Assembly (NCBI GenBank): GCA_965242565.1
Contig: OZ251457.1
Location: forward strand, 1,935,863 to 1,999,862
Reading direction: 5' to 3'
DNA from: Dehalococcoidia bacterium
GTDB lineage: Bacteria; Chloroflexota; Dehalococcoidia; Bin125
Length of the DNA: 64,000 bases
Below the pieces are notes generated by a model. It saw nothing but the letters and a program-made list of their open reading frames with translations, was not told the origin of the DNA and did no database searches. The position numbers were made by a program, and so were the translations under genes. Within the stretch, counting starts at the first letter, position 1. Every line of letters begins with the position of its first letter. This document shows positions 1,512 through 44,132 of the stretch, in pieces.

Positions 1512-2875
1512 CGCCCCGCCAACTTCCCAAGCGCGGCCGGCGCGCCCTCCCCGTCCGATGCCAGCCCCACGATCTCCACCGCCGTCAGCCAGTTCAGCGG
1601 CGGCGCTTCCCCCTCCCCGTCCACCAGCCGGTCCGCCAGCCCGTCCACCGGCCAGTCCACCAGCACCGGCGCGTAGGTGTCCGTCAGACCGTGCAGACGC
1701 GCCCCATCGAACGACTCGAAAAGCACCGGCAGCGTCTCGCCCGCCAGCTGCCCGCGAAACCGCGTCGCCTGTTCCACGGCCAGCTCGCGCAGCCGACGCG
1801 CCCGCTCGCGTTTGACCGGCGGCGCGACATCATCCTCCAGCAGCGCCGCGCCGGTGCGCGGGCGCGGCGAGTAAGGGAAAACGTGCATATCGGCGAACGC
1901 CGCCTCGCGGCAGAGCGCGTAGGTCCGCTCGAAATCCTCCTCCGTTTCGCCCGGAAACCCCACAATCACATCCGTCGTGATCGCCGCGCCCGGCGCAGCC
2001 AGTCGAATCCGCTCCAGCGCCTCCAGAAACTGCGCCGCGCTGTAGCGCCGCCGCATCCGACCCAGCACCGCGTCCGACCCGCTCTGCAGCGCCAGATGAA
2101 AATGACGGCAGAGCCGCGCATCGTCCCAGCAGGCCAGCAGCTCGGGCGTGATGTCCTGCGGCTGAATCGACGAATAGCGCAACCGCGGCGCGTCGGTCTC
2201 GCTTAACAGCGTCTCGAGCAGCCGCGCCGCGTTCGTCCCGTCGCCGCGATCGCGCCCATACGCGCCCGGCTGCGTGCCGGTCAGCACCACCTCCTGCACG
2301 CCCTCCGCCACCCGCTCCCGCACCTCCGCCGCCACCTCCGCAATCGGAACCGCGCGCTCCCGCCCCCGCACGCTGGGCACGATGCAGAAGGCGCACACAT
2401 CGTCGCAGCCCTCCTGAATCTTCACGAACGCCCGCGTCCGTCCGCCCGCTCGCCCTGATCCCTCCGCTCGTCCTGCCGCCCCGTTGCCGTCGGCCCGTCC
2501 CAACGCGCGCAGCACCGCCTCCGCCGCGCGCGCCTTCTCCGCATTCGGCACCACCGCAGCCACGCCCAGCTCGACCGCCAGCGCGCCGCCCGCATGCTCC
2601 GTGTAGCAGCCCGTCACCACCACCGGCGCGTTCGGCGTCAACCGCCGCGCCAGACGAATCAGCCGCCGCGCCTTGCGATCCGCCGTATGCGTCACGCTGC
2701 ACGTGTTGATCAGCCAGGCGTCGGCCTCGGCCGGGCGATCCACCGTCACGCAGCCCGCGCCCCGCAGCGCGCGCGCGGCCGCCTCGGTTTCCGCCTGGTT
2801 CAGCTTGCAACCCAGCGTCAGCGCGGCGACGACGGGCGCGCGCCGCTCCGGCGCGCCGCTGCGGAGATCTGCCAC
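1508..2875 (-). CDS. MiaB-like tRNA methylthiotransferase (MtaB-type radical SAM enzyme)
   Basis: N-terminal MTTase domain (LTLGCKLNQAETEAA...INTCSVTHTADRKAR). Radical-SAM CxxxCxxC (EGCDDVCAFCIVP). C-terminal TRAM-like region. The ORF-track N-terminal extension to 3478 runs through a repeat cluster. The likely start is GTG around 2875, possibly further in at about 2833. Confidence 0.7.
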   Translation of the reverse strand: MADLRSGAPERRAPVVAALTLGCKLNQAETEAAARALRGAGCVTVDRPAEADAWLINTCSVTHTADRKARRLIRLARRLTPNAPVVVTGCYTEHAGGALAVELGVAAVVPNAEKARAAEAVLRALGRADGNGAAGRAEGSGRAGGRTRAFVKIQEGCDDVCAFCIVPSVRGRERAVPIAEVAAEVRERVAEGVQEVVLTGTQPGAYGRDRGDGTNAARLLETLLSETDAPRLRYSSIQPQDITPELLACWDDARLCRHFHLALQSGSDAVLGRMRRRYSAAQFLEALERIRLAAPGAAITTDVIVGFPGETEEDFERTYALCREAAFADMHVFPYSPRPRTGAALLEDDVAPPVKRERARRLRELAVEQATRFRGQLAGETLPVLFESFDGARLHGLTDTYAPVLVDWPVDGLADRLVDGEGEAPPLNWLTAVEIVGLASDGEGAPAALGKLAGR

Positions 2876-2949: not shown

Positions 2950-3076
2950 CATGGTTGAAGTCGGCCTCGCCATCCTCTTTATCGCCATCCTGGTCGGCGC
3001 CGACCGCCGCCGCTACGAGCGCCTCGGCGAGCGCATGCGCGAAGTCGTCGACTGGCTCGACCGCCCCGAGCAATAG
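2950..3076 (+). CDS. Small hypothetical membrane protein (41 aa)
   Basis: ATG at 2950; MVEVGLAILFIAILVGADRRRYERLGERMREVVDWLDRPEQ has one TM helix plus a charged tail. No homology call possible. Confidence 0.3.
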
Positions 3077-4080: not shown

Positions 4081-4145
4081 CCCCTGCTGTGGCGCACGGC
4101 GCGCGGGCGCGGTACCGTAAGGACGGCGGGTGCGCAGGCATTGCC

Positions 4146-6476
4146 ATGCGAGTTGGTTGGGCGGCGCGGCGAGCAGCACTGCTCGCCGCATTCCTCGCGG
4201 CGCTGATCTCGAGCGCGTGCATCTTCGGCGGCGAGTCGGAGCGCGACCTCTCCGAGTACTTTCCGCAAGCCCAGCAGCAGGCGCAGCAGCAGCCCGACCA
4301 ACCAGCCGCCCCCGCCGCGCAGCAGCAAACCCAGCCCGGCTCAGCGCTGCCGCCGCTGGAGCGGCTCGAAGACACCTCGCGCGCGCCGGTCAGCGCGCTC
4401 GAAGCCGTCCAGCGCTTCTTCCACCTGCTCGCCACCGACCGCCTCGCCGAGGCTTGGACCACCATCAGCGTCGAGGGCAAAGAGCGCTACGACGCGGAGC
4501 GCTTCGCGCAGCGCTACCGCGACATCTGGGCCGAGGCGACGATCCGCGGCTTCAGCTGGGAGATCGTCGAGGGCGACGACGTCAACGCGCCCGCCTTCGA
4601 CGTGATTCTGCGCTACCAGACGACCTTTTTCGGCGAGATCGAGGAGCGCGTCTTCGCTCCCGTCCTGCGCCAGCCTCACTGGGTCGTCGACTGGTCGCCC
4701 AATCTGATCTTCGACGGCCTCGGACCCGAGGGCTTCCTGATCCACACGCTGGTCGAAGTGCCCGAGCGCGGCCGCATCCTCGACCGCAACGGCGAGGTGC
4801 TGGCGGGCGAGGCGCAGGTGGCGATTGTGGGCGTGCATTGGGACGTGGTGACGGACGAGGATTTCGTGATCGATTTCTTCGTGGAGCGGCTGGGCATGGA
4901 TGAGGCGGTGGTGCGCTCGCTGATCTACCAGGACGTTCCGAGTTATCAGTTTCTGCCGGTGGCGGAGTTGCCGATCGGCACGCCCGAGGAGCTGATTGCG
5001 GAGTACGACCAGCTTTCCGAGCACGGCATTCTGGTCAGCCGCGACACGCGGCGCTGGTATCCCCACGGCGAGCTGGCCTCGCATGTCGTCGGCTACCTCC
5101 AGGAGATCAACGCCGAGGAACTGGAGCAGCGCTTCACCGAGGGCTACCGCGCGGGCGACCGGATCGGGCGCGACGGCATCGAGCACTCGTTCGAGAACGC
5201 GCTGGCCGGGCGGCGCGGCGGCTCGCTGGTGATCCTCGACGCGAGCGGGCGGCCGATCCGCGAGATCACCGTCCGCCCCGCCGTGCCCGGCTCCGATGTC
5301 CGCCTCACGCTCGATCTGCGCGTGCAGCAGCTGGCCGAGGCCGCGCTCGGCGAGCAGCCCGGCGCCGCCGTCGCGCTCGATCCCCGCAACGGCCAGATCA
5401 TCGCCATGGCTTCCTATCCGCGCATCGACCCCAACGCCATCACCGACGGCTTCACCCAGGCGGAAGTCGATCTCTACTTCAACGACGAGCGCCAGCCGTT
5501 CATCAACCGCGCGGTCGAACAGGTCTACGCGCCCGGCTCGACCTTCAAGTCGATCACCCTCGCCGCCGCACTCGAAGAAGGCGGCTACGAGGTCAGCGAC
5601 CGGCTCGATTGCCCGGTCTCCTGGATGGGCGTGGGCGACCAGCCGCTGCGCAACTGGAAAGACACCGACCAGGGCTTGATCAGTCTGGCGCGCGCTCTGG
5701 CCGAGTCCTGCAACACCGTCTTCTACGAAATCGGCCTCCAGCTGGACCGCCGCGACGACCGTTTGCTGCCCTCGATCGCGGCCGGTTTCGGCTTCGGCGC
5801 GCCCACCGGCGTGGTCGGGCTGGCCGAGGAATCCGGCGTCAACCCGTCGCCCGCCTGGAAGCGCGCCGCGCTCAACGAGCCCTGGTACACCGGCGACACG
5901 CTCAACACCAGCATCGGCCAGGGCTTCGTCGCCGTCACCCCGCTGCAAATGGCCAACGCCTACGCCGCGCTCGCCACCAGCGGCGTGCTCTTCACGCCCG
6001 TCATCGTCCACTCGATCGAGCCGCGCGGCGCGCCGCCGGAGCCGATCGAGCGCCGCGCGATCAACGTGCTGCCCGTCTCCGCCGAAACACTGAGCCAGCT
6101 CAAGGCCGCCCTGCGCGGGGTCGTCTCCCAGCCCTTCGGCACGGGTTGGGGACCGTTCAACGGCAGCGCCCTGCGTGTCGCCGGCAAGTCGGGCACCGCC
6201 GAAGATCAGGTGATTGACGCCGAAACGATCGCCACCGTCGACGAAGCGCAGCAGGCCGCCCAACAGCAGGCCGGCCAGCAGTCGGAGCAGGAACAGCCGC
6301 CCGAGCAGGTCGGCCCCTTCTTCACCCACGCCTGGTTCGCCGCCTGGGCCAACTACGACGACCCCAGACTGGTCGTGGCGATCGTGCTCGACGACGGCAA
6401 GTCGGGCGCGGACGACGCCGGACCGATCGCCCGTCGCGTGCTGGAAGGCGCAATCCTCACCGGCGCGGTACCGTGA
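4146..6476 (+). CDS. Class B penicillin-binding protein (PBP2-like transpeptidase) with NTF2-like N-terminal domain
   Basis: Signal/TM segment MRVGWAARRAALLAAFLAALISSACIF. Transpeptidase motifs STFK (APGSTFKSITL), SxN (LNTSIGQG) and KSG (GKSGTAE). Q-rich low-complexity linkers. Start ATG 4146 is preferred over 4089. Confidence 0.85.
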   Translation: MRVGWAARRAALLAAFLAALISSACIFGGESERDLSEYFPQAQQQAQQQPDQPAAPAAQQQTQPGSALPPLERLEDTSRAPVSALEAVQRFFHLLATDRLAEAWTTISVEGKERYDAERFAQRYRDIWAEATIRGFSWEIVEGDDVNAPAFDVILRYQTTFFGEIEERVFAPVLRQPHWVVDWSPNLIFDGLGPEGFLIHTLVEVPERGRILDRNGEVLAGEAQVAIVGVHWDVVTDEDFVIDFFVERLGMDEAVVRSLIYQDVPSYQFLPVAELPIGTPEELIAEYDQLSEHGILVSRDTRRWYPHGELASHVVGYLQEINAEELEQRFTEGYRAGDRIGRDGIEHSFENALAGRRGGSLVILDASGRPIREITVRPAVPGSDVRLTLDLRVQQLAEAALGEQPGAAVALDPRNGQIIAMASYPRIDPNAITDGFTQAEVDLYFNDERQPFINRAVEQVYAPGSTFKSITLAAALEEGGYEVSDRLDCPVSWMGVGDQPLRNWKDTDQGLISLARALAESCNTVFYEIGLQLDRRDDRLLPSIAAGFGFGAPTGVVGLAEESGVNPSPAWKRAALNEPWYTGDTLNTSIGQGFVAVTPLQMANAYAALATSGVLFTPVIVHSIEPRGAPPEPIERRAINVLPVSAETLSQLKAALRGVVSQPFGTGWGPFNGSALRVAGKSGTAEDQVIDAETIATVDEAQQAAQQQAGQQSEQEQPPEQVGPFFTHAWFAAWANYDDPRLVVAIVLDDGKSGADDAGPIARRVLEGAILTGAVP

Positions 6477-9173: not shown

Positions 9174-9271
9174 ACCACCCCATCCTACCCGTCGGCCGGT
9201 GCGTGCCGCCGCGCTTGCCTCAACCCCGCATGCTGGCTAGCTTGCGCGTCGCGGGTGCGAACGGCGGCGGC

Positions 9272-12200
9272 ATGATCCACATCACCACGGAACGAGCCCG
9301 CCGCCTGATCGCGCTGGCGATGCTCTGCGCGCTGGCGGCGGTCGTCGCCCTCGCCCTCTCCGGACGCACGGATCCGCTCTATCGGCTGGTCGGCGCGGTT
9401 GACGCGCACGCCTCCGTGACCGTGACAGCCGAAGACGCCGCCGCAATCACCATCCCGCCCAACCCCGACGACGCGGGCGCCGCGATCAGCGCGCGCGTCG
9501 TGCCGCAGCAGGAGCTGCCGCCCGCGCCGGCGCAGTTCCCGGACTACCTGGGGGCGTGGGAGTTCAGCATTGAGGGCGGCATCGATGGTGCGGCGACGCT
9601 GCGCGCGCCGGCACCCGATGTGGACGGCGCATGGACTGTGGTTGTCTGGGTCGACGGCGAGTGGCAGCTCACACCGTTCGCCGTCGAGGGCGGAACGATC
9701 GTCGCTCCGCTCGTACCGCCCGACCTCAATCTCGGGCGGATTAGCCGATGGGCTGGCGCCGTCGTAGGGTGCTTCGGCGATCCGATCAAGTGCGCCGGGG
9801 ACCTGGCGGGCGTCGCGTCCGATTGCATCGCAAACGTCGCGAAATGCACAGTCGCCAGGATCACGGCGCATTGGGAACTGACCAACGCCTTCTGGGAAGC
9901 CGCCGTTGAGGGCACCCGGATCGTGGTCGGTGAGGACTCGGTCGTCTACTCCATCGTCAAAGGTTCAGTTGGCACACTCGTCGAGATCAGCGATGCAGCG
10001 AAAGAGAAGTTCAGGGAGGCCACGACCGATCTGCTGAGCTTCGTGTTAGGCCAGCCTACGCCGATCCGCTGCCGACCCGATGACCGATCGATTATCTACA
10101 CGCCGAGTGCCTGGCAGGAGGTGCTCGACGGCTGCGCCCAGCAGACCTCCGACGGCTCGCTGCTGCGGGTCAAGAACATGCGCCGCTTCTGGGTGCAAGT
10201 CTGCCCCTCCAACACGCGCAATGTCGAGCGACGCGGCGCATTCGATCTTTTCGGTCCGCTCTCCAACTGCCGCGGCGTTGAGGGCGGCACAATGCTCGGC
10301 CCGAGCGCCGAAGCCGCCTGGGATGCTGACGACAACGCCGCGCTCAACGTCAACGCCTACTTCACGCCCCGCGCCGCCCTGATCACGCTCACCGACTGGA
10401 TCCTCTCCGCCGTGGGCATCGGCGACTTCGGCGGCAAGGTCGGCATGCTGCTCAGCGTGCTCGAGTCGCTGCGCTCGATCGACGAAGTCCAGAACGTCAT
10501 CCAGGCGGTCGAGCAGGGCCGGATCGCGGATGCCTTCGAGCGCTTCGCCGCATTGATCCGCAACGAAGTCGCCCGCGGGCGCGTGATCGAACTGCTGGCC
10601 AAATCCGGGATCGTCCAGACACTCGGCGTACATCTCTCGGCCGACGCAATCAAGGCCGCCGTTGGTTGGGCCGCAGTGGTTGAGCTGAGTCTTGATGTCG
10701 CCAACCTTGCAACCCTCCGAACCCGCTCCAACGGCTACGCCGGCTCCGTCTCGTTCCGTTCGCTTCGCGCCGCGACTCCACGCGCCGAACAGGTGCGGCA
10801 GGCGGGCGGCGAAATGGAGCGCGTCGAGCAAACGCGCCGCGCCAGCGACCGCACCGCTGTCGAACCGCCCACCACCGAGCGCGCCGCGCCCGATCACGTG
10901 CTGATCCGGGAGGTTGGCACAATCGACGTCTTCCTCACCCGAATCGCCGCCGGCAAACGCTTCAAGCGCCTGCTGCTCAACCCGGCGGTCTTCGAGAGCT
11001 ACGGCTTCGACTGGCAGTCGGTGCGCGATGTGAGCGCCGAGGAAATTGGCCGCTGGGCGCACAGCAGCCTCGTACGGCTGGAAGGCGATTACCGGGTCTG
11101 GCAGCTCTTCCCCGACGGCGACGAAGGCGAGCGGCGCTGGCTCGACATCACCGCCGAACAGTTCGTCGCAGCCGGCTTCGACTGGGACTCCGTGGCGGAG
11201 ATCAACCGCACCGAGTTCGAGGCCTACGACGAAGGCCGCCCGGTCACCGCCGCCGAACTCGGCCTGGCCGGCGCGCCGCCCACCGCCGGCGGCGCGCTGC
11301 GGTTCGTCGCCGATGTCGGCGACCGCACCCTCACCATCGGGGAGCACTCCGGCAATGTCATCCTCCCCGCGGCCGTCGGCGGTCGCGCGCCCTACACCTA
11401 CCGGCTCTCGCCGCCCTCCGGGATGAGCTTCAACCCCGCAACGCGCCGGTTCGGCGGCATCCCCAACGGGCCCGCCGGCGATCACACGCTCAGCTACCGC
11501 GCAACCGACGGCGTCGGAAATGAGGTTCGCGCCGATTTCGCCATCTCCATCGTCTCAGACTTGCAGCGCGATCCGTCTCCTTCGGCGGGTGGCAGTCGCG
11601 CGCAAGCAGTCACGGTCGGTGATCATCATGCCTGCGCGCTGCTCGACTCGGGCGCGATCGAGTGCTGGGGACGCAACTACTACGGCCAGGCGGACGCGCC
11701 GGGCGGGTCGTTCAGCGCCGTCAGCGCGGGCGGGAGGCACACCTGCGGGCTGCGCACGAGCGGCGCGGTCGAGTGCTGGGGAGACAACTACTACGGCCAG
11801 GCGGACGCGCCGGGCGGGTCGTTCAGCGCCGTTAGCGCGGGCGACTGGCACACCTGCGGGCTGCGCACGAGCGGCGCGGTTGAGTGCTGGGGAAACAACG
11901 ACTCCGGCCAGGCGGACGCGCCGGGCGGGTCGTTCAACGCCGTCAGCGCGGGCGAGTGGCACACCTGCGGGCTGCGCGCGAGCGGCGCGGTCGAGTGCTG
12001 GGGATGGAACCGCTACGGCCGGACGGACGCGCCGGGCGGGTCGTTCAGCGCCGTTAGCGCGGGCGGGTTGCACACCTGCGGGCTGCGCGCGAACGGTGAG
12101 ATCGAGTGCTGGGGATGGAACGACGATGGCCAGACGAACGCGCCGGGCGGAGCGTTCAGCGCCGTCAGCGCGGGCGGGAGCCACACCTGCGGGCTGCGCA

Positions 12201-13306
12201 CCAGCGGCGCGATCGAGTGCTGGGGATACAACGGCTCCGGCCAGGCGGACGCGCCGGGCGGGTCGTTCAGCGCCGTCAGCGCAGGCGGGGACCACACCTG
12301 CGGGCTGCGCGCGAGCGGCGCGATCGAGTGCTGGGGAGACAACGACGACGGCCAGACGGACGCGCCGGGCGGGTCGTTCAACGCCGTCAGCGCGGGTTGG
12401 TGGCACACCTGCGGGCTGCGCACGAGCGGCGCGGTCGAGTGCTGGGGAGACAACTACTACGGCCAGGCGGACGCGCCGGGCGGGTCGTTCAGCGCCGTCA
12501 GCGCGGGCGCGAACCACACCTGCGGGCTGCGCGCGAGCGGCGCGATCGAGTGCTGGGGGGACAACGGCTCCGGCCGGGCGGACGCGCCGGGCGGGTCGTT
12601 CAGCGCCGTCAGCGCGGGCGTGTTCCACACCTGCGGGCTGCGCACGAGCGGCGCGGTCGAGTGCTGGGGAGCCAACCGCTACGGCCAGGCGGACGCGCCG
12701 GGCGGGTCGTTCAGCGCCGTCAGCGCGGGCGAGTGGCACACCTGCGGGCTGCGCGCGAGCGGCGTGATCGAGTGCTGGGGCTACACGTTCGACGGCCAGG
12801 CGCAGCCGCCGGCGGGCAGACACACCGCGATCAGCTCCGGCGCCCACCACGCCTGCGCGCTGAGCGAGGACGGAACCGTCGCCTGCTGGATGATCTACAA
12901 CGGCGCGGCCGATGTCCCCGCCTGGCTGCGCGGAGTGGAGAGCGCCGACGGCGCGATACAGGCGTTCGAGACCGAGCCGGCGCGCGGGCGGATCATCGCC
13001 CGCCGCCTGCCGGATGGCCGCACTGAGTTCGGCTGGCTGCCCGTGGGCGCGGACGATCGCATTCTGCCGCGCTCCCGCTACTTCCCCACCGATGCGCAGC
13101 CCACCCGCTGGCTGCGCTCCAGCCCGATCGAGGTGAGCGGCATCGTGATCGGCCGGATCAGCGCCCGCCTGCTCGCCGACGGGCGAATCGAATTCGCCTT
13201 CACCCCGACCAGCGGCGAGCGCATTCTGCCGCCCTCGCGCTTCTTCCCGGCGGACGCGGCAGTCGGCCGCTGGCTGCGCAGCACGGAGATCGAGCTCAGC
13301 CGCTAG
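9272..13306 (+). CDS. Large secreted RCC1-repeat (beta-propeller-like) protein, paralog of 37604-41381
   Basis: Signal peptide (MIHITTERARRLIALAMLCALAAVVALALSG). Central domain shared with the paralog. About 11 tandem 37-aa repeats GGSFSAVSAGxxHTCGLRxSGAxECWGxNxxGQADAP. Two C-terminal about 50-aa repeats (GRIIARRLPDGRTEFGWLP...RWLRSSPIEVSG). Alternative start at 9203 or 9230. Confidence 0.65.
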   Translation: MIHITTERARRLIALAMLCALAAVVALALSGRTDPLYRLVGAVDAHASVTVTAEDAAAITIPPNPDDAGAAISARVVPQQELPPAPAQFPDYLGAWEFSIEGGIDGAATLRAPAPDVDGAWTVVVWVDGEWQLTPFAVEGGTIVAPLVPPDLNLGRISRWAGAVVGCFGDPIKCAGDLAGVASDCIANVAKCTVARITAHWELTNAFWEAAVEGTRIVVGEDSVVYSIVKGSVGTLVEISDAAKEKFREATTDLLSFVLGQPTPIRCRPDDRSIIYTPSAWQEVLDGCAQQTSDGSLLRVKNMRRFWVQVCPSNTRNVERRGAFDLFGPLSNCRGVEGGTMLGPSAEAAWDADDNAALNVNAYFTPRAALITLTDWILSAVGIGDFGGKVGMLLSVLESLRSIDEVQNVIQAVEQGRIADAFERFAALIRNEVARGRVIELLAKSGIVQTLGVHLSADAIKAAVGWAAVVELSLDVANLATLRTRSNGYAGSVSFRSLRAATPRAEQVRQAGGEMERVEQTRRASDRTAVEPPTTERAAPDHVLIREVGTIDVFLTRIAAGKRFKRLLLNPAVFESYGFDWQSVRDVSAEEIGRWAHSSLVRLEGDYRVWQLFPDGDEGERRWLDITAEQFVAAGFDWDSVAEINRTEFEAYDEGRPVTAAELGLAGAPPTAGGALRFVADVGDRTLTIGEHSGNVILPAAVGGRAPYTYRLSPPSGMSFNPATRRFGGIPNGPAGDHTLSYRATDGVGNEVRADFAISIVSDLQRDPSPSAGGSRAQAVTVGDHHACALLDSGAIECWGRNYYGQADAPGGSFSAVSAGGRHTCGLRTSGAVECWGDNYYGQADAPGGSFSAVSAGDWHTCGLRTSGAVECWGNNDSGQADAPGGSFNAVSAGEWHTCGLRASGAVECWGWNRYGRTDAPGGSFSAVSAGGLHTCGLRANGEIECWGWNDDGQTNAPGGAFSAVSAGGSHTCGLRTSGAIECWGYNGSGQADAPGGSFSAVSAGGDHTCGLRASGAIECWGDNDDGQTDAPGGSFNAVSAGWWHTCGLRTSGAVECWGDNYYGQADAPGGSFSAVSAGANHTCGLRASGAIECWGDNGSGRADAPGGSFSAVSAGVFHTCGLRTSGAVECWGANRYGQADAPGGSFSAVSAGEWHTCGLRASGVIECWGYTFDGQAQPPAGRHTAISSGAHHACALSEDGTVACWMIYNGAADVPAWLRGVESADGAIQAFETEPARGRIIARRLPDGRTEFGWLPVGADDRILPRSRYFPTDAQPTRWLRSSPIEVSGIVIGRISARLLADGRIEFAFTPTSGERILPPSRFFPADAAVGRWLRSTEIELSR
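11580..12790. repeat. Intragenic tandem repeat, period 111 nt x about 11 (encodes the RCC1-like 37-aa units)
   Basis: Near-identical units (...ggcgggtcgttcagcgccgtcagcgcgggcg...cacacctgcgggctgcgc...gagtgctgggg...). They are coding repeats, not a CRISPR array. Confidence 0.8.
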
Positions 13307-37603: not shown

Positions 37604-40600
37604 TTAACGAACCAGGAGCCCCCAACACCGGACAGTGCCGTCGTCGCGCAGCCCACAGGTGTGTCCGCCACCGGCGCTAACGGCGGCGAAGCGGTCGCTC
37701 GGCGCTTCCGTTTGGCCGGAGCCGTTCGTTCCCCAGCACTCGACAGCACCGCTCTCGCGCAGCCCGCAGGTGTGCCCGCGACCGGCGCTAACGGCGGCGA
37801 AGCGGTCGCTCGGCGCATCCGTTTGGCCGGAGCCGTTCGTTCCCCAGCACTCGACAGCACCGTTCTCGCGCAGCCCGCAGGTGTGCCAGCCACCGGCGCT
37901 AACGGCGGTGAAGCGGCCGCTCGGCGCATCCGTTTGGCCGGAGCCGTTCGTTCCCCAGCACTCGATGGCACCGCTCTCGCGCAGTCCGCAGGTATGGAAG
38001 CTGCCGGCGCTGACGGCGGTGAAGCGGCCGCTCGGCGCGTCAGCCTGTCCTCTATCGCCGGAAGCATAGGGGAGCTCCTCGGCTCCCCAGCACTCGACGG
38101 TGCCATCATAGCGCAGTCCGCAGGTGTGCTGGTCGCCTGCGGTAACGTCTCTGAAGCGTCCGCTAGGTGCGTCTATTTGGCCGAACTCACCGTATCCCCA
38201 GCATTCAACAGTGCCAGTTTCGCGCAGTCCGCAGGCGTGGCTGACAAGCTCGCTTCCATGGTACGAGCCAGTAGAACCAGTGCTGACGGCTATGAACCGC
38301 CCGTCAGGACTGCCGTATTGGGTGTATCCCCAACATTCGACGGTACCATCGTCGCGCAGCCCGCAGGTGCTGGTTGAGCTGGCGCTAATCGCGGAGAAGC
38401 GACGATTTTTAGGTGTGGACTCTCCGTATTCGTTCCGTCCCCAGCATTCGACGGTGCCGTCGTCGCGCAGCCCGCAGGTGTGATGCGTACCGGCGCTGAT
38501 GGCGGTAAACCGGCCACTAGGTGGGTCGGATGTGCCTCCCCAGCATTCGACAGTGCCGTTGTTGCGAAGCCCACAGGTGTGGGACCTACCAGCGCTGATG
38601 GCAGTAAACCGGCCGTTAGGTGAGTCGGATATGGTTCCCCAGCATTCGACAGTGCCGTCGTCGCGCAACCCACAAGTGTGAGAGCCACCCGTGCTGACGG
38701 CGGTGAATTGGCCACCGGGGTCATCGGACTGGCCTGCTCCGTTGCTCCCCCAACATTGAACGGTGCCATCATCGCGCAACCCACAGGTGTGGACGGAGGG
38801 GGTGTCGTCACTCCAAGTACCGGGCTGGCCCCAGCCGGCGCTAATCGCGGTAAATCGTCCTCTCGGCGCGTCGGACTGACCCAGATCGTTGTCTCCCCAG
38901 CATTCGACAGTGCCGTCGTCGCGCAGTCCGCAAGTGTGCCAGGCACCCGAGCTGATCGCGCTGAAGCGGCCGGCCGGAGCGTCGGCCCAGTCGCTGAAGT
39001 CACTTCCCCAGCATTCGACAGTACCGTCGTCGCGCAGTCCGCAAGTGTAGCCGCCGGCGCTGACGGCCTTAAAAGCACCAGGCTGCGGATGTCTCTGTCC
39101 AGAGCTGTTGTTTCCCCAACACTCGATTTCCCCGCTCACGCGCAGCCCGCAGGTGTGCCCACTGCCAGCGCTGACGGCCTGGAACACATCTTCGCCGCCC
39201 GCCAATTCCACACGCAGCTCGAACTCTCCGGTTTGCCCTGCACCGCGATTCGCCACCTCGATCGTGTACAGGCCGGCCTCCATCTCCGCGCGAGCCCAGT
39301 CCGACGCCTCCGTGAAGACGCGCACCGGCTTCGCCGTGCGACTCGTCTCCCGCGAGACGTAGACCGCGGAGCTCTGCTCCGAATCCAGCCCAAGAGTGGC
39401 CTCCTGCGCCTCATCCAGCTCGAACCGGTAGTAGCGCGCATAACTCCCGTCGAGCCGCTGCGACTGGCAGGCATGATTCCAGCGCCCCTTCACCGTGCCC
39501 TCGGTGATATCCCCGCCCCAGCACACCGACGGCGGCACGTCATATGCGACTGTGCCCAGACGCTCCTCGTCGTTGGCGATCAGCACCTTGAAGAACTCGA
39601 CACCACGCTGCACTCCATTCACGAGCTTCTCGCCCACCTTGTAGGCCCCGTACACTTTGATCAGCGCAGCCTTCTTAATCGTGACGCCAGCGTGCTGAGC
39701 GGCAGCGATTATCAGGTCGACCAGCGCTTCGCCCATCTCCGGCGTCAGGAGCACACCCGCCACCGTCTTCAGCGCCGCCTCACGGTTGCCGTTGTCCCAC
39801 TGGTTAAACGCTTGCACGAGGTCCTCGCTGCGCAGCAGTACTGATACCAGGTTGGTCAAGGCGGGTATCGGCACAGCGAAACCGATGACCTCTTCAACCA
39901 TCTCCTTGATCGGTTGGTAGAACACTGTCATGCCCGCCGCGGTCCAGGTCATCTCGGCATTCAACCGAACGGCCCCATCGCGCGTCGGCCGCCAGCTGCC
40001 GACTGCTCCCGGCGCGAGCAGGGTGCCCTCGTGATCGCTCAGCCACTTGTAGAGATCGACCGAAGTAGCGTGCTCAGGGTTGCCCTCAATCGGCCGCACT
40101 TCAAACCAGATGTGGCGCGGATTGCGCGCCAACAGCAGCGGCCCGTCGTCCGTCCGTTGAGCGCACCCTTTCAGGTACACGCCGACGATCCGATCGATGA
40201 GACTGCCGCCGGAGGGGTTGCGAACGGTCACGGTATCGTCGGGCTTCTCGCAGATGATCTGGTCTTTCAGCCCCAACTGCTCCGCTCCCCAATCCACCGT
40301 CCAGGTGATCCCGTCCCAGATGCCCTCCCCAATCGTCGTCACGCCTTCGACTATGTATCCGCCGATGTCTTCGAGGCCCTGGGCGACATCGCCGATCACC
40401 GGAAGACCCTTGACCTTCTTCCAGAAGCTCAGCGAGTCGGTTTGGACGATGATCTGATCGCCCTCGACCGTGAACGGTTCGAGAATCCAGTGTTCGCCGT
40501 TGTAGTGCGCCAGGAACCAGGTTTCGTCTTCGTCGGCCGGCGACGGCAGCGACAACGTCACCGTCCCGGTCAGCTCACCCTCCACCTCGAAGTCCCACGC

Positions 40601-41381
40601 GCCCAACGTCTCGGTTCCCCCGGCGGGCAAGGGCGGCAATTCTTCCTCGGAGACGACCCGAGCGGTGATCTTCGCGCCCACCGACGCCGCGCCGGGCGGC
40701 ACCGTGATCGCCGCTCCATCTTCCGCTACCGCGGTACCGCCGCCCGCGCCCACCTCGCCCTCCGTCGGCTCTGGCCGCTCCGCCGGCACGGCGATCAGGC
40801 TGCTGCGCAGCCACTTGCTCGCGCTGTTGTCAATCAGCCGCCGTGTCAGAAAGCGATTCGTCGGAAAAACATCGTCGCCCCCGCTCTGCTCCCCGCGCAC
40901 ATCCTCGCCCCAGCCCGGCCGGAAACCGAAGCCAATCCGCGTCAGCCGCCCGTTGTCGTCCACTTCGGCGCGGGCGATGATCCGCCCGCGCACGCCGTCC
41001 TCTGACCCGTCGGCGTCGGGAATCAGGATCTCGCTGCTGCGCAGCCAGCGCCCGGCGCTGCTCTCGATCAGCCGCTGCGTCAGGAAGCGGTTCGTCGGGA
41101 AGAGGTCGTCCGGCCCGTCGCCGCCTCCGCGCACATCCTCGCCCCAGGCCGGCCGAAAGCCGAACTCCACCCGCGTCAGCCGGCCGTCGTCGTCCACCCA
41201 CGGGGCCACTACGATCCGACCGTCGACGCTACTCACACTGTCATCCTGCGCATTCGCAGGCTGTGCCAAAACAAGCGCGGCGACGGCTGCGACAAGCGCC
41301 GCCAGCCCTATCAGCAGCGCCTTAGTGAGGGTTTTTACCCCCCCCCCCCCCGAGATCCATGCAAACGTGCAGACGCATGAG
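37604..41381 (-). CDS. Large secreted RCC1-repeat protein (paralog of 9272-13306, permuted domain order); reading frame disrupted or phase-shifted at a G14 tract near the 5' end
   Basis: Body frame: signal-peptide-like VKTLTKALLIGLAALVAAVAALVLAQPANAQDD. Two about 50-aa repeats (GRIIARAEVDDNGRLTRIGFGFRP...WLRSS). Central domain homologous to the paralog. About 18 RCC1-like 37-aa repeats at the C-terminal end. Candidate ATGs at 41381/41360 (SD gaggggaa) are +1 out of frame with the body because of the poly-G tract (14 G on the coding strand). Confidence 0.6.
41338..41351. repeat. Homopolymeric tract C14 (G14 on coding strand) between candidate start codon and signal-peptide coding region
   Basis: Direct count: 41338-41351 is all C. 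It is the only homopolymer of 10 nt or longer seen in the window. Confidence 0.9.
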
Positions 41382-41552
41382 CTGTTTCCCCTCTTGTCCG
41401 ACCTCCGCGATCCGGCGCACGGGCAGCAGACTACGGGCATGCGAACTGTTCGGTCAAACGAATGAGGGGACTTGGGCTGACGCGTCGCCAGTCCGCCGCT
41501 CAGAGGGAGGCGCGTACCCTGCCCCCAACCCTCGATCAGAAGGAGCACCCCA

Positions 41553-42044
41553 ATGACCCAGCGCGAACCCGCCAACATGCCTCCCGAAGCCCCCGCCCTC
41601 GACACCGAACCCATCCCCCCGCCCGACGACGCCCGCTTCGTCGTCAAGGCCGTCGCCGACATCCCCGAGACCGTCGGGCGCAACATCCACGCACGACGCA
41701 TGTTCACCGCCGCCGAGGGGCGCTTCGAGAGCTCGCTCTCCTTCGTCCTCTTCAACCGCCTGCCCGTCGGCGAGACCAACGTCCGCCACATCCACGAGGA
41801 CGTCGAGAAGGTCTACTACTTCCTGCGCGGCAACGCGGAGATCGACTGCGGCCCCTGGCGCGCCGCCGCCGCCGCCGGCGACTTCCTCTTCTTCCCCGCC
41901 GACATCGCCCACCAGATCCGCAGCCTCGGCCCCGACGACCTCGAATTCATCGTCTGCGCCGCCTCCACCGTCGGCGAGGCGCGCGGAATGTCCGACGGCG
42001 GCCTGCTCGACCAGCCGGCCGGCGACGGCGAGGACGCCTCATGA
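41553..42044 (+). CDS. Cupin domain protein
   Basis: RHIHEDVEKVYYFLRGNAEIDCG...AGDFLFFPADIAHQIRSLG is the cupin two-motif pattern. Confidence 0.6.
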   Translation: MTQREPANMPPEAPALDTEPIPPPDDARFVVKAVADIPETVGRNIHARRMFTAAEGRFESSLSFVLFNRLPVGETNVRHIHEDVEKVYYFLRGNAEIDCGPWRAAAAAGDFLFFPADIAHQIRSLGPDDLEFIVCAASTVGEARGMSDGGLLDQPAGDGEDAS

Positions 42045-43093
42045 CCGACATCGACGCCACCGAAATCCTCCCCCTCGAGCCGCTCCGCGACTTCGGCGAG
42101 GCCGTCTATCAGGCCTGCGGCGTGCCGCCCGCCGACGCCGCGCTGACCGTCGAAATCCAGCTCACCGCCGACCTGCGCGGCGTCGACACCCACGGCTTCC
42201 AGCGCCTGCCCTGGTACGCCGGACACCTGCGCGAGGGCCGCTACAACCCCACGCCCAGCCTGGCCGCAATCCGCGAGACGCCCGTCTCGCTGCTGGTCGA
42301 CGGCGACGGCGGCATCGGTCAGCTGGCCGTCGCCCGCACCATGCAGCGCACCATCGCAAAGGCGCGCGAAACCGGCCTCGCGCTGGGCGCGCTGCGCAAC
42401 TCCAACGACTGGGGCATGGGCGCTTACTACCCGATGCTGGCCGCCGCCGAAGGCTTCGTCTCCTTCTGCACCACCACCTCCGTGCCCACCCTCGCCCCGT
42501 TCGGCGCGCGCACCCGCATGACCGGCAACAACCCCATGGCCTTCGCCGCCCCGCGCACCTCCGGCCCGCCGATGGTGCTCGACATGGCGCTCACCCCCGT
42601 TGCGCTCGGCAAAGTGATGCGCGCCCGTGCCGAGGGCCGCGAGATTCCTGAAGAGTGGAGCTTCCTCGATCTGGAGGGCCAGCCCACCACCGATCCGCAA
42701 ACCGCGCTCGGCGGCATCATCCCCGCGCTCGGCGCGGTCAGCGCTTACAAGGGCAGCGGCCTCAGCCTCTTCATGAACCTGCTCGCCGGCGCGCTGCCCG
42801 GCAGCGCCCACTCCGCCGCCGTCGAAATCGGAAAGCGCGGACAGTTCCTGCTGGTCGTCTCCCCCGACCTCTTCGGCGAGGCCGCCGAGTTCGAGGCCGC
42901 CGTCGACGAAATCTGGCGCCAGGTCAAATCCGCCGACCCGCTGCCCGGCGTCCAGGAGGTGCTCGCCCCCGGCGAGCAAGAGCAGCGCACCCACGACGAA
43001 CGCAGCGCCGCCGGCCAAATCGCCTACCCCGCCTCCACCGTCCGCGACCTCCGCGACCTCTCCGCCGACCTGGGCATCCCCCTCGATGCGTAA
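42041..43093 (+). CDS. Ldh_2 family malate/L-lactate/sulfolactate-type dehydrogenase
   Basis: [22 protein letters not shown]..., [10 protein letters not shown], and [29 protein letters not shown] are Ldh_2 (YlbC/AllD-like) signatures. ATGA start/stop overlap with the cupin gene. Confidence 0.75.
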
Positions 43094-44132
43094 GCGCGCC
43101 GCGCTCGCCGTCGTCGTCGCGCTGCTGATCGGCGCATTCGCCGCGCTCGTCGGCTGCGCTGAAGACGATCCGCCGCCGCCCGCGCTGCAACAGGTCGAGC
43201 AGGAAGATCCGCAGCCGGCCAAGCAGGACGACGGCCCGCCGCAGGCCGCGCAAGCGCCGCCGCAAGAGCAGCAGGCGGAGCCGCAATCCGAACGACCTCA
43301 GCCTGAGCCGTCATCGAGCGATGGCCTGCCCTTCGCCGAGGACGCCGCGCTGCTCGCTCGCTTGCAGGTCGCGGACGAGTGGGACGGCGACGTCGACTAC
43401 GACCGCGATACTTACCTACCCGGCGGCTGGGGCGACGCCGACGGCGACGGCTGCAACACCCGCGAGGAGGTGCTGATCGCCGAAGCGCGCGCGATCACCA
43501 GCGTCAACCAGTGGTGCCGTCCCATCGACGGCATCTGGTGGTCCTGGTACGACGAAATCGAGTTCGACGATCCGGGCGAGATCGACATCGACCACATGGT
43601 GCCGCTTTTCGAGGCGCACCACTCCGGCGGCTGGCAGTGGTCCGGGCCTCGGCGCATCGCCTTCGCCAATGACCTGGACGAGCCGGCCGCGCTGACTGCC
43701 GTCTCATCTCGCAGCAACCGCGAAAAGAGCGCCGATGATCCCGCAGAGTGGCGTCCACCCGCGCGTTCGGCGTGGTGCCAATACGCGCGCGACTGGATCA
43801 CCGTCAAAGCGCGCTGGTACCTCACAGCCGACCAGGCCGAGGTCTCGGCGCTGCGAACAATGCTCGAAACCTGCGAAGCGCCGCCCGAATCTCGCCCGGC
43901 GGAACAGCTCGATCGCCCTGTCCGCCGCGTCGAAGTGGGCGAGCGGGAGAACGACCGACCAGCACCTCAGCCGACAGGCGAGCGAAAGGCTGTCTACGAC
44001 TCCTGCGACGAAGCCGAAGCCGCCGGCGAGCCGCGCATCCAGGGCGAGCGCGGTACAGGCCAAGGCTTCCCCGCCGCAAAAGTCCCCGCCGCCCGCGACG
44101 GCGACGAAGACGGCGTCGTTTGCGAGCGATAG
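43086..44132 (+). CDS. Secreted lipoprotein with DUF1524 (His-Me finger/HNH-like nuclease) domain and C-terminal Excalibur Ca-binding domain
   Basis: Lipobox [27 protein letters not shown]...[30 protein letters not shown] is the DUF1524 pattern. C-terminus [14 protein letters not shown] is Excalibur-like (DxDxDGxxCE). Confidence 0.55.

Follow-up and report, generated by a model that had tools for sequence, protein, structure and literature searches.

Phase variation through homopolymers is seen chiefly as a device of mucosal pathogens with a low guanine-cytosine (GC) content, and the Bordetella fim genes carry poly-G/C tracts in their promoters. Here we describe a 64,000-nucleotide stretch of contig OZ251457.1 from a Dehalococcoidia bacterium of the phylum Chloroflexota (assembly GCA_965242565.1, positions 1,935,863 to 1,999,862), referred to below as the window, in which an uninterrupted run of 14 G residues lies at the 5′ end of a gene for a giant protein with RCC1 repeats. 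Among the closest described systems are the sortase-dependent pilin genes bbr_0113 and bbr_1889 of the host-associated Bifidobacterium breve UCC2003, which are turned ON and OFF by intragenic tracts of G10-12 whose replication slippage has been measured; the Sec signal and the body form two open reading frames (ORFs) joined only at the right number of G residues, and the reference genome carries the genes in the OFF state, mis-annotated (PMC9187656). Poly-G/C contingency loci also occur in Neisseria, Campylobacter and Helicobacter, for example gonococcal lgt (PMC2192423) and the Campylobacter phasome (PMC6321876), and in Treponema pallidum poly-G/C tracts lie in the promoters of tpr genes (PMC7864442). 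Homopolymers also serve recoding by transcriptional slippage, as in Thermus dnaX and in insertion sequence (IS) elements (PMC1088944).

The window locus shares with the B. breve switch its high GC content, a pure G tract near the start of the coding region of a very large gene whose product is secreted or, here, predicted to be, a reference sequence that appears to be OFF, a mis-annotated gene, and conservation of the tract across strains at an equal annotated length per locus. The split-ORF layout of B. breve is exactly that of three related loci (L003, L006 and L013, described below) but is not found in the window, where the tract lies 5′ of the hydrophobic (h) region of the signal peptide and only a nine-codon leader (MRLHVCMDL) is in the other frame. 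The systems differ further in lineage and protein type, with Chloroflexota/Dehalococcoidia and RCC1 beta-propeller repeats here, in tract length, which is greater in the present family (12-14), and in that switching was measured in Bifidobacterium, whereas here it is predicted from sequence. As for the traits of a sortase-dependent pilin, the window gene has no LPXTG motif (its C-terminus reads ...CWGLLVR), and its neighbours are cupin, Ldh_2, GmrSD and DUF2461 genes.

With the loci of Neisseria, Campylobacter and Helicobacter, the window locus has in common the position of its G/C tract, early in a putative surface or host-interaction gene, together with predicted frame-dependent ON/OFF states and, apparently, lengths that vary among strains. 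Those organisms, however, are low- or medium-GC pathogens with dozens of loci per genome and measured switching, whereas here one tract was found in 64 kb of an uncultured lineage represented by metagenome-assembled genomes (MAGs). The tpr and fim tracts are likewise G/C homopolymers just upstream of the coding body of a surface protein, and they modulate its expression, but they act on promoter spacing or transcription, whereas the window tract lies 3′ of the inferred promoter, Shine-Dalgarno (SD) element and ATG. A preliminary description of this locus had proposed phase variation and had called it unusual for a high-GC organism; the latter was overstated, as the Bifidobacterium pilin genes use the same device (PMC9187656).

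Our analysis makes it reasonably probable that the G14 tract is a real, selectively maintained and slippage-prone element that switches translation ON and OFF in the manner of a simple-sequence contingency locus. The allele assembled here is most probably OFF at present and one slip from ON. The phase-variation reading gains this measure of support because pure tracts of G12-G14 recur at two 5′ positions, alleles in mixed phase exist in the family, and the gene bodies are constrained by purifying selection. Under the proposed mechanism, transcription would start at about 41421 from a family promoter, TTGACC-18-TAGTCT, and translation would initiate at ATG 41378 (MRLHVCMDL). The tract would be read as Gly codons, and its length would decide whether ribosomes enter the signal peptide and the 1244-codon body, so that 10, 13 or 16 G would be ON and other lengths OFF, yielding an 18-aa peptide. 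Tract length would change at high frequency by replication slippage, and cells would presumably exploit the switching. Switches of this kind have been described before; what is new is the phylum, the protein family and the recurrence at two positions.

The G14 tract and its reading frames

The tract, a pure G14 homopolymer proposed to act as a slipped-strand switch, occupies 41338..41351 on the minus strand (C14 on the plus strand), in agreement with the sequence and position first reported. On the minus strand its context is gaggggaaacagctc-ATG-CGT-CTG-CAC-GTT-TGC-ATG-GAT-CTC-(G)14-TAAAAACCCTCACTAAGGCG, with caagaGGGGaaacagctc as the longer 5′ context; it begins nine codons 3′ of ATG 41378, upstream of the h-region of the signal peptide. 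It is thus an uninterrupted repeat in a 5′ coding region, longer than the slippage threshold of about 8 nt for G/C runs, whose repeat number toggles between a full-length product and an early stop. Lengths equal to 1 modulo 3 (10, 13 or 16 G) join ATG 41378 to the body, and G14 does not. As had been described, the frame of ATG 41378 and ATG 41360 ends early at G14, at TAA 41324..41322, and at G13 or G16 it reads through VKTLTK...ANA|QDD. By frame arithmetic, the short ORF left open at G14 (41322..41378, minus) encodes the 18-aa OFF product MRLHVCMDLGGGGGKNPH*, and the hypothetical G13 product is MRLHVCMDLGGGG-VKTLTK... (also written MRLHVCMDLGGGGVKTLTK...), running into ANA|QDD and the body.

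Several positions needed adjustment. Two start codons, both said to be preceded by an SD element, had been placed at 41381 and 41360; the second stands, the first is at 41378, and only the latter has an SD-like element (GAGGGG). A distant in-frame Met, placed near 41443, exists at 41440, and the body, given as 1250+ aa, comprises 1244 codons counted from GTA 41338.

The body ORF runs from GTA 41338 to a stop at 37604 (37604..41338, minus) and encodes a signal peptide, two N-terminal modules, a central domain and RCC1_2 repeats. In the body frame, the N-terminus reads VKTLTKALLIGLAALVAAVAALVLAQPANA|QDD.... By inspection, the first segment (41249..41338, minus) is a putative Sec-type signal peptide with a K/K n-region (VKTLTK), a 19-residue hydrophobic core (ALLIGLAALVAAVAALVLA) and a c-region QPANA|QDD with an AxA motif, and it is homologous to the equivalent segments of relatives. 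Judged from this signal peptide alone, the product would be a secreted or surface protein. Thirteen RCC1_2 repeats were detected (PF13540 in Pfam; E 1.2e-97, 318 bits against a cut-off of 22), and these multiple repeats above the Pfam gathering score place the product in the RCC1-repeat beta-propeller family. RCC1_2 and WD40_RLD were its only Pfam matches, and NCBIfam and PDB sequence searches with its N-terminal 670 aa gave nothing. Peptides predicted to be diagnostic of the products of the locus are MRLHVCMDLGGGGVK, the expected mature N-terminus QDDSVSSVDGR and, for a start at ATG 41440, MPVVCC....

The tract is followed by a T and a short A run, which is A5 in the window (41332..41336, minus) and in the related locus L001, and A4 in L002 (3085..3088). 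One A fewer in the A5 of the window also restores the frame, giving GGT AAA ACC CTC (GKTL), identical to the reading of L002; the A run is a second, shorter slippery element beside the G tract.

Start codon and promoter

To place the start codon, we compared the window gene with the 99 relatives obtained by an exhaustive HMMER search of 1.8 billion representatives. The hypothetical G13 product of the window, MRLHVCMDLGGGGVKTLTKALLIGLAAL, is colinear with the N-termini of P0022 (MRLHIWTDPRGGKTLTKVLLVGLAAL), P0024 (MRLHIWTAPREDTTLTQVLLVGLAAL), P0047 (MRLRNITDLGGGGVRFLLL), P0099 (MRLRNITDLGVRFLLL) and P0115 (MRLRNITNLGKVNL); shorter forms of the N-termini of distant relatives that were compared with it are MRLHIWTDPRGGKTLTK... 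and MRLRNITDLGGGGVRF... (the latter from P0047). The ATG concerned (41376..41378, minus; MRLHVCMDL...) is kept in L001. The SD-like GAGGGG, read from the sequence, lies at 41388..41393 (minus) with a 9-nt spacer; the elements compared with it were GGAGAA, 9 nt 5′ of the ATG in L003, L006 and L013, and AAGGAG, 5′ of the divergent cupin gene.

Upstream we found a putative -35 box, TTGACC (41452..41457, minus), within the conserved CGyTTGACCGAA, which is invariant in the window, L001, L002 and L012 and has a single site in the window at 0 mismatches. A putative -10 box, TAGTCT (41428..41433, minus), follows 18 nt after it. The resulting family motif, TTGnnn-N17/18-TAGnnT, occurs once upstream of each of eight genes (the window gene, its paralogue at 9272, and the genes of L001, L002, L010, L012, L014 and L015), with a chance expectation of about 0.03 matches per locus; the predicted -10 box of the family is mostly TAGCTT, in its broader form TAG(C/T)(T/A/C)T. 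The promoter-like site of the paralogue is TTGCCT-17-TAGCTT (9212..9245, plus), and that of L002, TTGACC-18-TAGCAT (2962..2991), was scored by a generic promoter scanner.

Three potential starts, GTG 41420, ATG 41378 and ATG 41360, lie 3′ of the predicted promoter, all in the frame broken by G14. The GTG (41418..41420, minus), 7 nt after the -10 box and in the frame of ATG 41378, could serve as a leaderless alternative start, which G14 likewise puts out of frame. In both L002 and L012, an ATG stands 9 nt after the -10 box, which suggests that their mRNAs are leaderless or near-leaderless. Because its product has homologous N-termini among the relatives, and because ATG 41440 falls 5′ of the -10 box of the family promoter, we infer that ATG 41378 is the native start and that G14, as assembled, shifts the gene out of frame by one base. 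The earlier proposal of an SD-preceded ATG as the real start is therefore backed both by distant relatives and by a family-conserved promoter.

The public gene call for this locus, P0014 (1278 aa), starts instead at the in-frame ATG at 41438..41440 (minus). Were this correct, the gene would be in frame as annotated and the tract would encode a Gly4 linker in a long n-region. The codon is in frame at G14, is kept in L001 and was chosen by the gene caller, and L002 and L012 also have long n-regions, which start from the ATG just after their -10 box. Yet ATG 41440 falls in the spacer that separates the conserved -35 and -10 boxes and lacks an SD element, and its frame remains open as far as 41791, through the promoter, across the intergenic region and into the 5′ end of the divergent cupin gene, the spurious openness typical of high GC (69%). 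Its extension, MPVVCCPCAGSRRSDKRGNSSCVCTFAWIS, is unmatched in relatives with in-frame native leaders, whereas MRLHVCMDL in the other frame is matched; the peptide read from ATG 41440 matches only P0083, another odd call with a long extension. Codon usage also speaks against a Gly linker: GGG makes up 21% of the Gly codons in the tract gene and its paralogue, and GGG-GGG was found in 0 of 40 adjacent Gly-Gly pairs, so four consecutive GGG codons are unexpected and must be a feature of the DNA rather than of the protein. Codon-position GC and the substitutions between the window and L001 5′ of the tract, inspected by hand, did not tell the two frames apart, the sites being too few. We regard a genuine start at ATG 41440 as highly improbable and consider the call of P0014 a spurious start produced by the frameshift. 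The preliminary description had allowed for a start at the distant Met regardless of tract length, and the position of that codon upstream of the -10 box tells against it.

A model in which the tract acts as a promoter spacer, between a -35 and a -10 box, was tried and rejected. Taking TAAAAA as the -10 box leaves no start codon that keeps the signal peptide, no acceptable -35 box lies at 16-18 nt, and in genes of the L003 type the tract is 3′ of the signal peptide.

Tracts in related loci

All relatives come from metagenome assemblies. A genome scan yielded two loci, both species-representative hits being titled Dehalococcoidia MAGs; a scan of Joint Genome Institute (JGI) metagenomes yielded only L008 and L009, each 32% identical; and two profile searches of a word-indexed protein database gave few matches. 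In about 90 kb of related loci, only six homopolymers of at least 8 nt were found, all at the 5′ end of an RCC1-repeat gene. L001, with 87% DNA identity to the window, carries G14 at the same site and keeps the equivalents of both ATG 41378 and ATG 41440. At the site of the window tract, G12-TAAAAC is present in L002, a homologue of 44% identity from a different neighbourhood; the 90%-identical orthologue of L002, L012, has no tract. In L003, L006 and L013, which come from three projects and are 89-96% identical to one another, G13 occupies a second site, where it immediately follows an intact signal peptide (MRTVRDxRWIQGLLLVxLAMLGVAAGSGIA). In these three genes the frame of the signal-peptide ORF is unambiguously not that of the body, and joining them needs 11 or 14 G. 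The syntenic orthologues L004, L005, L007, L011 and L015 lack the tract and have ordinary signal peptides. The paralogue at 9272..13306 (plus), described in the preliminary description as lacking a tract, indeed has none and is an intact ORF (MIHITTERARR...) with its own promoter-like site.

The L002 gene is in frame with its distal ATG. Its native start, however, is probably the proximal one, MLKRTFVR-, which would require G13, because the family pattern is a leader of 3-10 residues, a Gly run and then K-x-L-L-L. Tract lengths read as DNA are 12 and 14 at one site and 13 at the other, equal within close lineage pairs, and ON alleles are known only as proteins.

We turned to these protein calls in a census of 40 relatives with informative N-termini, together with P0014. 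Gly4-6 immediately 5′ of the h-region was present in ten calls (nine relatives and P0014). Half of these (P0047, P0071, P0045, P0034 and P0031) have a short native leader in frame, which in P0047, P0071 and P0045 continues through Gly4-5. The other five have a long, odd, Cys/Arg-rich extension, suggestive of a frameshift that displaced the start 5′; such extensions are typical of wrong-frame read-through of GC-rich DNA. Separate from this set, several calls are truncated inside the signal peptide; P0059, for example, located inside a 3.4-Mb contig, is identical over residues 1-100 to residues 31-130 of P0047 but lacks the in-frame leader of the latter. In-frame alleles make up about 1/3, as random phase predicts, and in-frame and out-of-frame alleles, as read from these calls, coexist in the family. 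The apparent start artefacts comprise long Cys/Arg-rich extensions in P0083, P0113, P0111 and P0005 and starts inside or after the signal peptide in P0001, P0059, P0052 and P0068. P0112, a family member on the same contig outside the window, is called as a 270-aa fragment starting inside the first module (MDEAESWPEAI...) and may be another disrupted or mis-started gene. Such cases point to a systematic annotation artefact, in which gene callers rescue these genes with spurious upstream or truncated starts and so hide both the signal peptide and the switch.

Several observations weigh against a freely switching tract. Lengths are identical in diverged lineages, 14/14 at a synonymous divergence (dS) of 0.37 and 13/13/13 at 89-96% DNA identity, which a freely drifting hypermutable tract would not obviously hold, although strains of B. 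breve also share annotated tract lengths (PMC9187656). In all six alleles read as DNA (6/6), the inferred native start and the body are in different frames, which could indicate programmed slippage or systematic length miscalls, and the ON relatives are in frame as judged from their protein calls only. Moreover, the -10 box of the window falls below the threshold of the generic promoter scanner, and promoter and transcription start (near 41421) are predictions. The shared out-of-frame lengths could mean that OFF is favoured and that lengths lie near an equilibrium of 13-14, or that expression depends on slippage of RNA polymerase or ribosomes on a fixed tract.

The latter possibility would make the locus a case of programmed slippage, with an out-of-frame length fixed by selection and the full-length protein made constitutively at a low set level, with no heritable switching of the DNA. 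RNA polymerase could slip on G12-14, or ribosomes could shift by +1 or -1 on GGG GGG, with the following A5. Bodies under purifying selection behind the same out-of-frame lengths in diverged lineages, and DNA-level alleles that are each off by exactly one base, fit this explanation. The tracts are also longer than the RNA:DNA hybrid, making realignment physically possible, as is established for A/T runs (PMC1088944); dnaX and the IS elements likewise have a long homopolymer that separates two frames of one functional gene, at conserved out-of-frame lengths. These documented cases of bacterial transcriptional slippage, however, concern A/T runs of about 9 rather than G runs. The shift needed here is not the same at every locus: the window and L001 require -1 base, and L003, L006, L013 and L002 require +1. 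The out-of-frame layout is kept within lineage pairs but not in all functional orthologues: in-frame relatives (P0047, P0071 and P0045) and tract-less orthologues exist, so recoding is not obligatory. Nor was a stimulatory RNA structure detected, the 80 nt 3′ of the tracts folding no better than shuffled sequences (z = -0.44, +0.33 and -1.89). We therefore consider programmed slippage unlikely.

The uniform out-of-frame state might also be explained by miscalled homopolymer lengths. The real window tract would then be G13, the gene intact and the frameshift an artefact of sequencing or assembly. Long G runs are error-prone on every platform, a one-base error would suffice, and in B. breve the annotated lengths of G tracts differed from the true population mode, with an Illumina 'G's end' artefact (PMC9187656). 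Against this, two organisms at 87% DNA identity (window and L001) independently give 14, and three assemblies, from separate projects and with naming styles suggesting different assemblers, all give 13 at the second site. The corrections required at the two sites are opposite in direction, which a one-sided bias cannot explain, and even a miscall in the window would leave the tract a conserved slippery element. A length error as the whole explanation seems to us quite unlikely.

Selection on the gene body and purity of the tract

If the frameshift were a fixed inactivating mutation with no regulatory role, the gene would be a decaying pseudogene. The assembled alleles are indeed out of frame, and L013 has a second, mid-gene frameshift. 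However, the bodies 3′ of the out-of-frame tracts are intact over 1088-1258 codons (window, L001 and L003) or over at least 1124 (L006). We estimated the ratio of nonsynonymous to synonymous divergence (dN/dS) by the Nei-Gojobori method over the first ~650 codons and obtained 0.29 for the window and L001 (dS 0.37), 0.21 for L003 and L013 (dS 0.22) and 0.28 for L002 and L012. Long intact bodies together with dN/dS of 0.2-0.3 over dS of 0.2-0.4 indicate that the tract-bearing genes are under purifying selection and are not dead pseudogenes. In addition, the tracts stay pure, and the disruption lies always and only at the tract. Of the explanations considered, decay is the one to which we give least credence.

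The tract also stands out from its genomic background. The window is 68.9% GC, and its next-longest homopolymer has 6 bases. G14 is the sole G/C run of at least 7, for which Markov models give an expectation of 9-16; in 200 simulations of 64 kb with order-1 and order-3 models, the longest G/C run was 7-12, against 14 observed. G/C homopolymers are strongly avoided in the window, which has 14 runs of exactly 6 and, besides the tract, none of 7 or more. An extreme outlier against this background, the tract has remained pure in lineages that differ by dS of 0.2-0.4 and also in L002, the homologue of 44% identity. This purity across divergences, together with the constrained bodies, argues that the tract itself is maintained by selection and excludes simple pseudogene decay.

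A proposed cassette shared among paralogues

Throughout the family, paralogues seem to exchange a 5′ cassette that may or may not include the tract, and the window tract most probably belongs to this pattern. We put forward only tentatively the further idea of a portable cassette, made up of a TTGnnn-N17/18-TAGCTT promoter, a short MRL... leader, G12-14 and a signal peptide, that has spread among paralogous giant secreted proteins with RCC1 or PKD repeats. At one syntenic locus, with cupin genes more than 90% identical, the 5′ cassettes and central domains of the RCC1 genes are quite different between close genomes (L003-L007, L011, L013 and L015). L015 (5640..6010) has a signal peptide like that of L010 but without a tract, and L006 and L013 differ in the central domain. 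The mosaic structure of the RCC1 genes suggests recombination among paralogues.

If the G14 tract is a switch, G-tract switching would extend to a new phylum, probably to a mutualistic or commensal lifestyle, and to giant, eukaryote-like RCC1 secreted proteins. A portable cassette would further imply a family-wide 'phasome' of stochastically switched eukaryote-like surface proteins. No contingency-locus system would have been described before it in Chloroflexota nor, should the sponge origin guessed from sample names be correct, in sponge symbionts, where it would plausibly tune host recognition. The tract hypothesis is testable with existing metagenomic reads, through length heterogeneity and ON/OFF ratios by sample or host.

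Neighbouring genes and additional features

A module of about 75 aa, GRIxxR...(R/I)xEFGFxP...RFxxxxxxxxxRWLRSSxI, is present in two copies at the N-terminus of the tract gene (40780..41230, minus) and also occurs at the C-terminus of the 9272..13306 paralogue (12900..13300, plus). It had no Pfam, NCBIfam or PDB sequence match. Its family numbers about 100 representatives, in most of which the module is joined to RCC1 or PKD repeats, and it appears from these comparisons to be an undescribed domain.

The divergent cupin gene (41553..42044, plus), with the SD element AAGGAG, bounds the control region of about 200 bp and served as a synteny marker; the cupin neighbourhood of the window is also present in L001, L004, L005, L011, L013 and L015. 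The syntenic locus is flanked by cupin, Ldh_2 and GmrSD genes on one side and by DUF2461, MFS and luciferase-like genes on the other. Adjoining it in the window (43086..44129, plus) is a gene whose product combines a GmrSD_C domain with a C-terminal Excalibur Ca-binding domain, and in L001 and L015 the GmrSD_C gene is followed by one for an Mrr_N/Mrr_cat restriction protein. The GmrSD_C and Mrr genes may form a small defence island beside the variable gene.

Additional mid-gene frameshifts split RCC1 genes in L013 (~4500..4560, 25x coverage), L010 (~2000..2020) and L011 (~4131..4178, 3-4x). That of L010 lies on a contig of 3x coverage and not at a long homopolymer, and is probably an assembly error.

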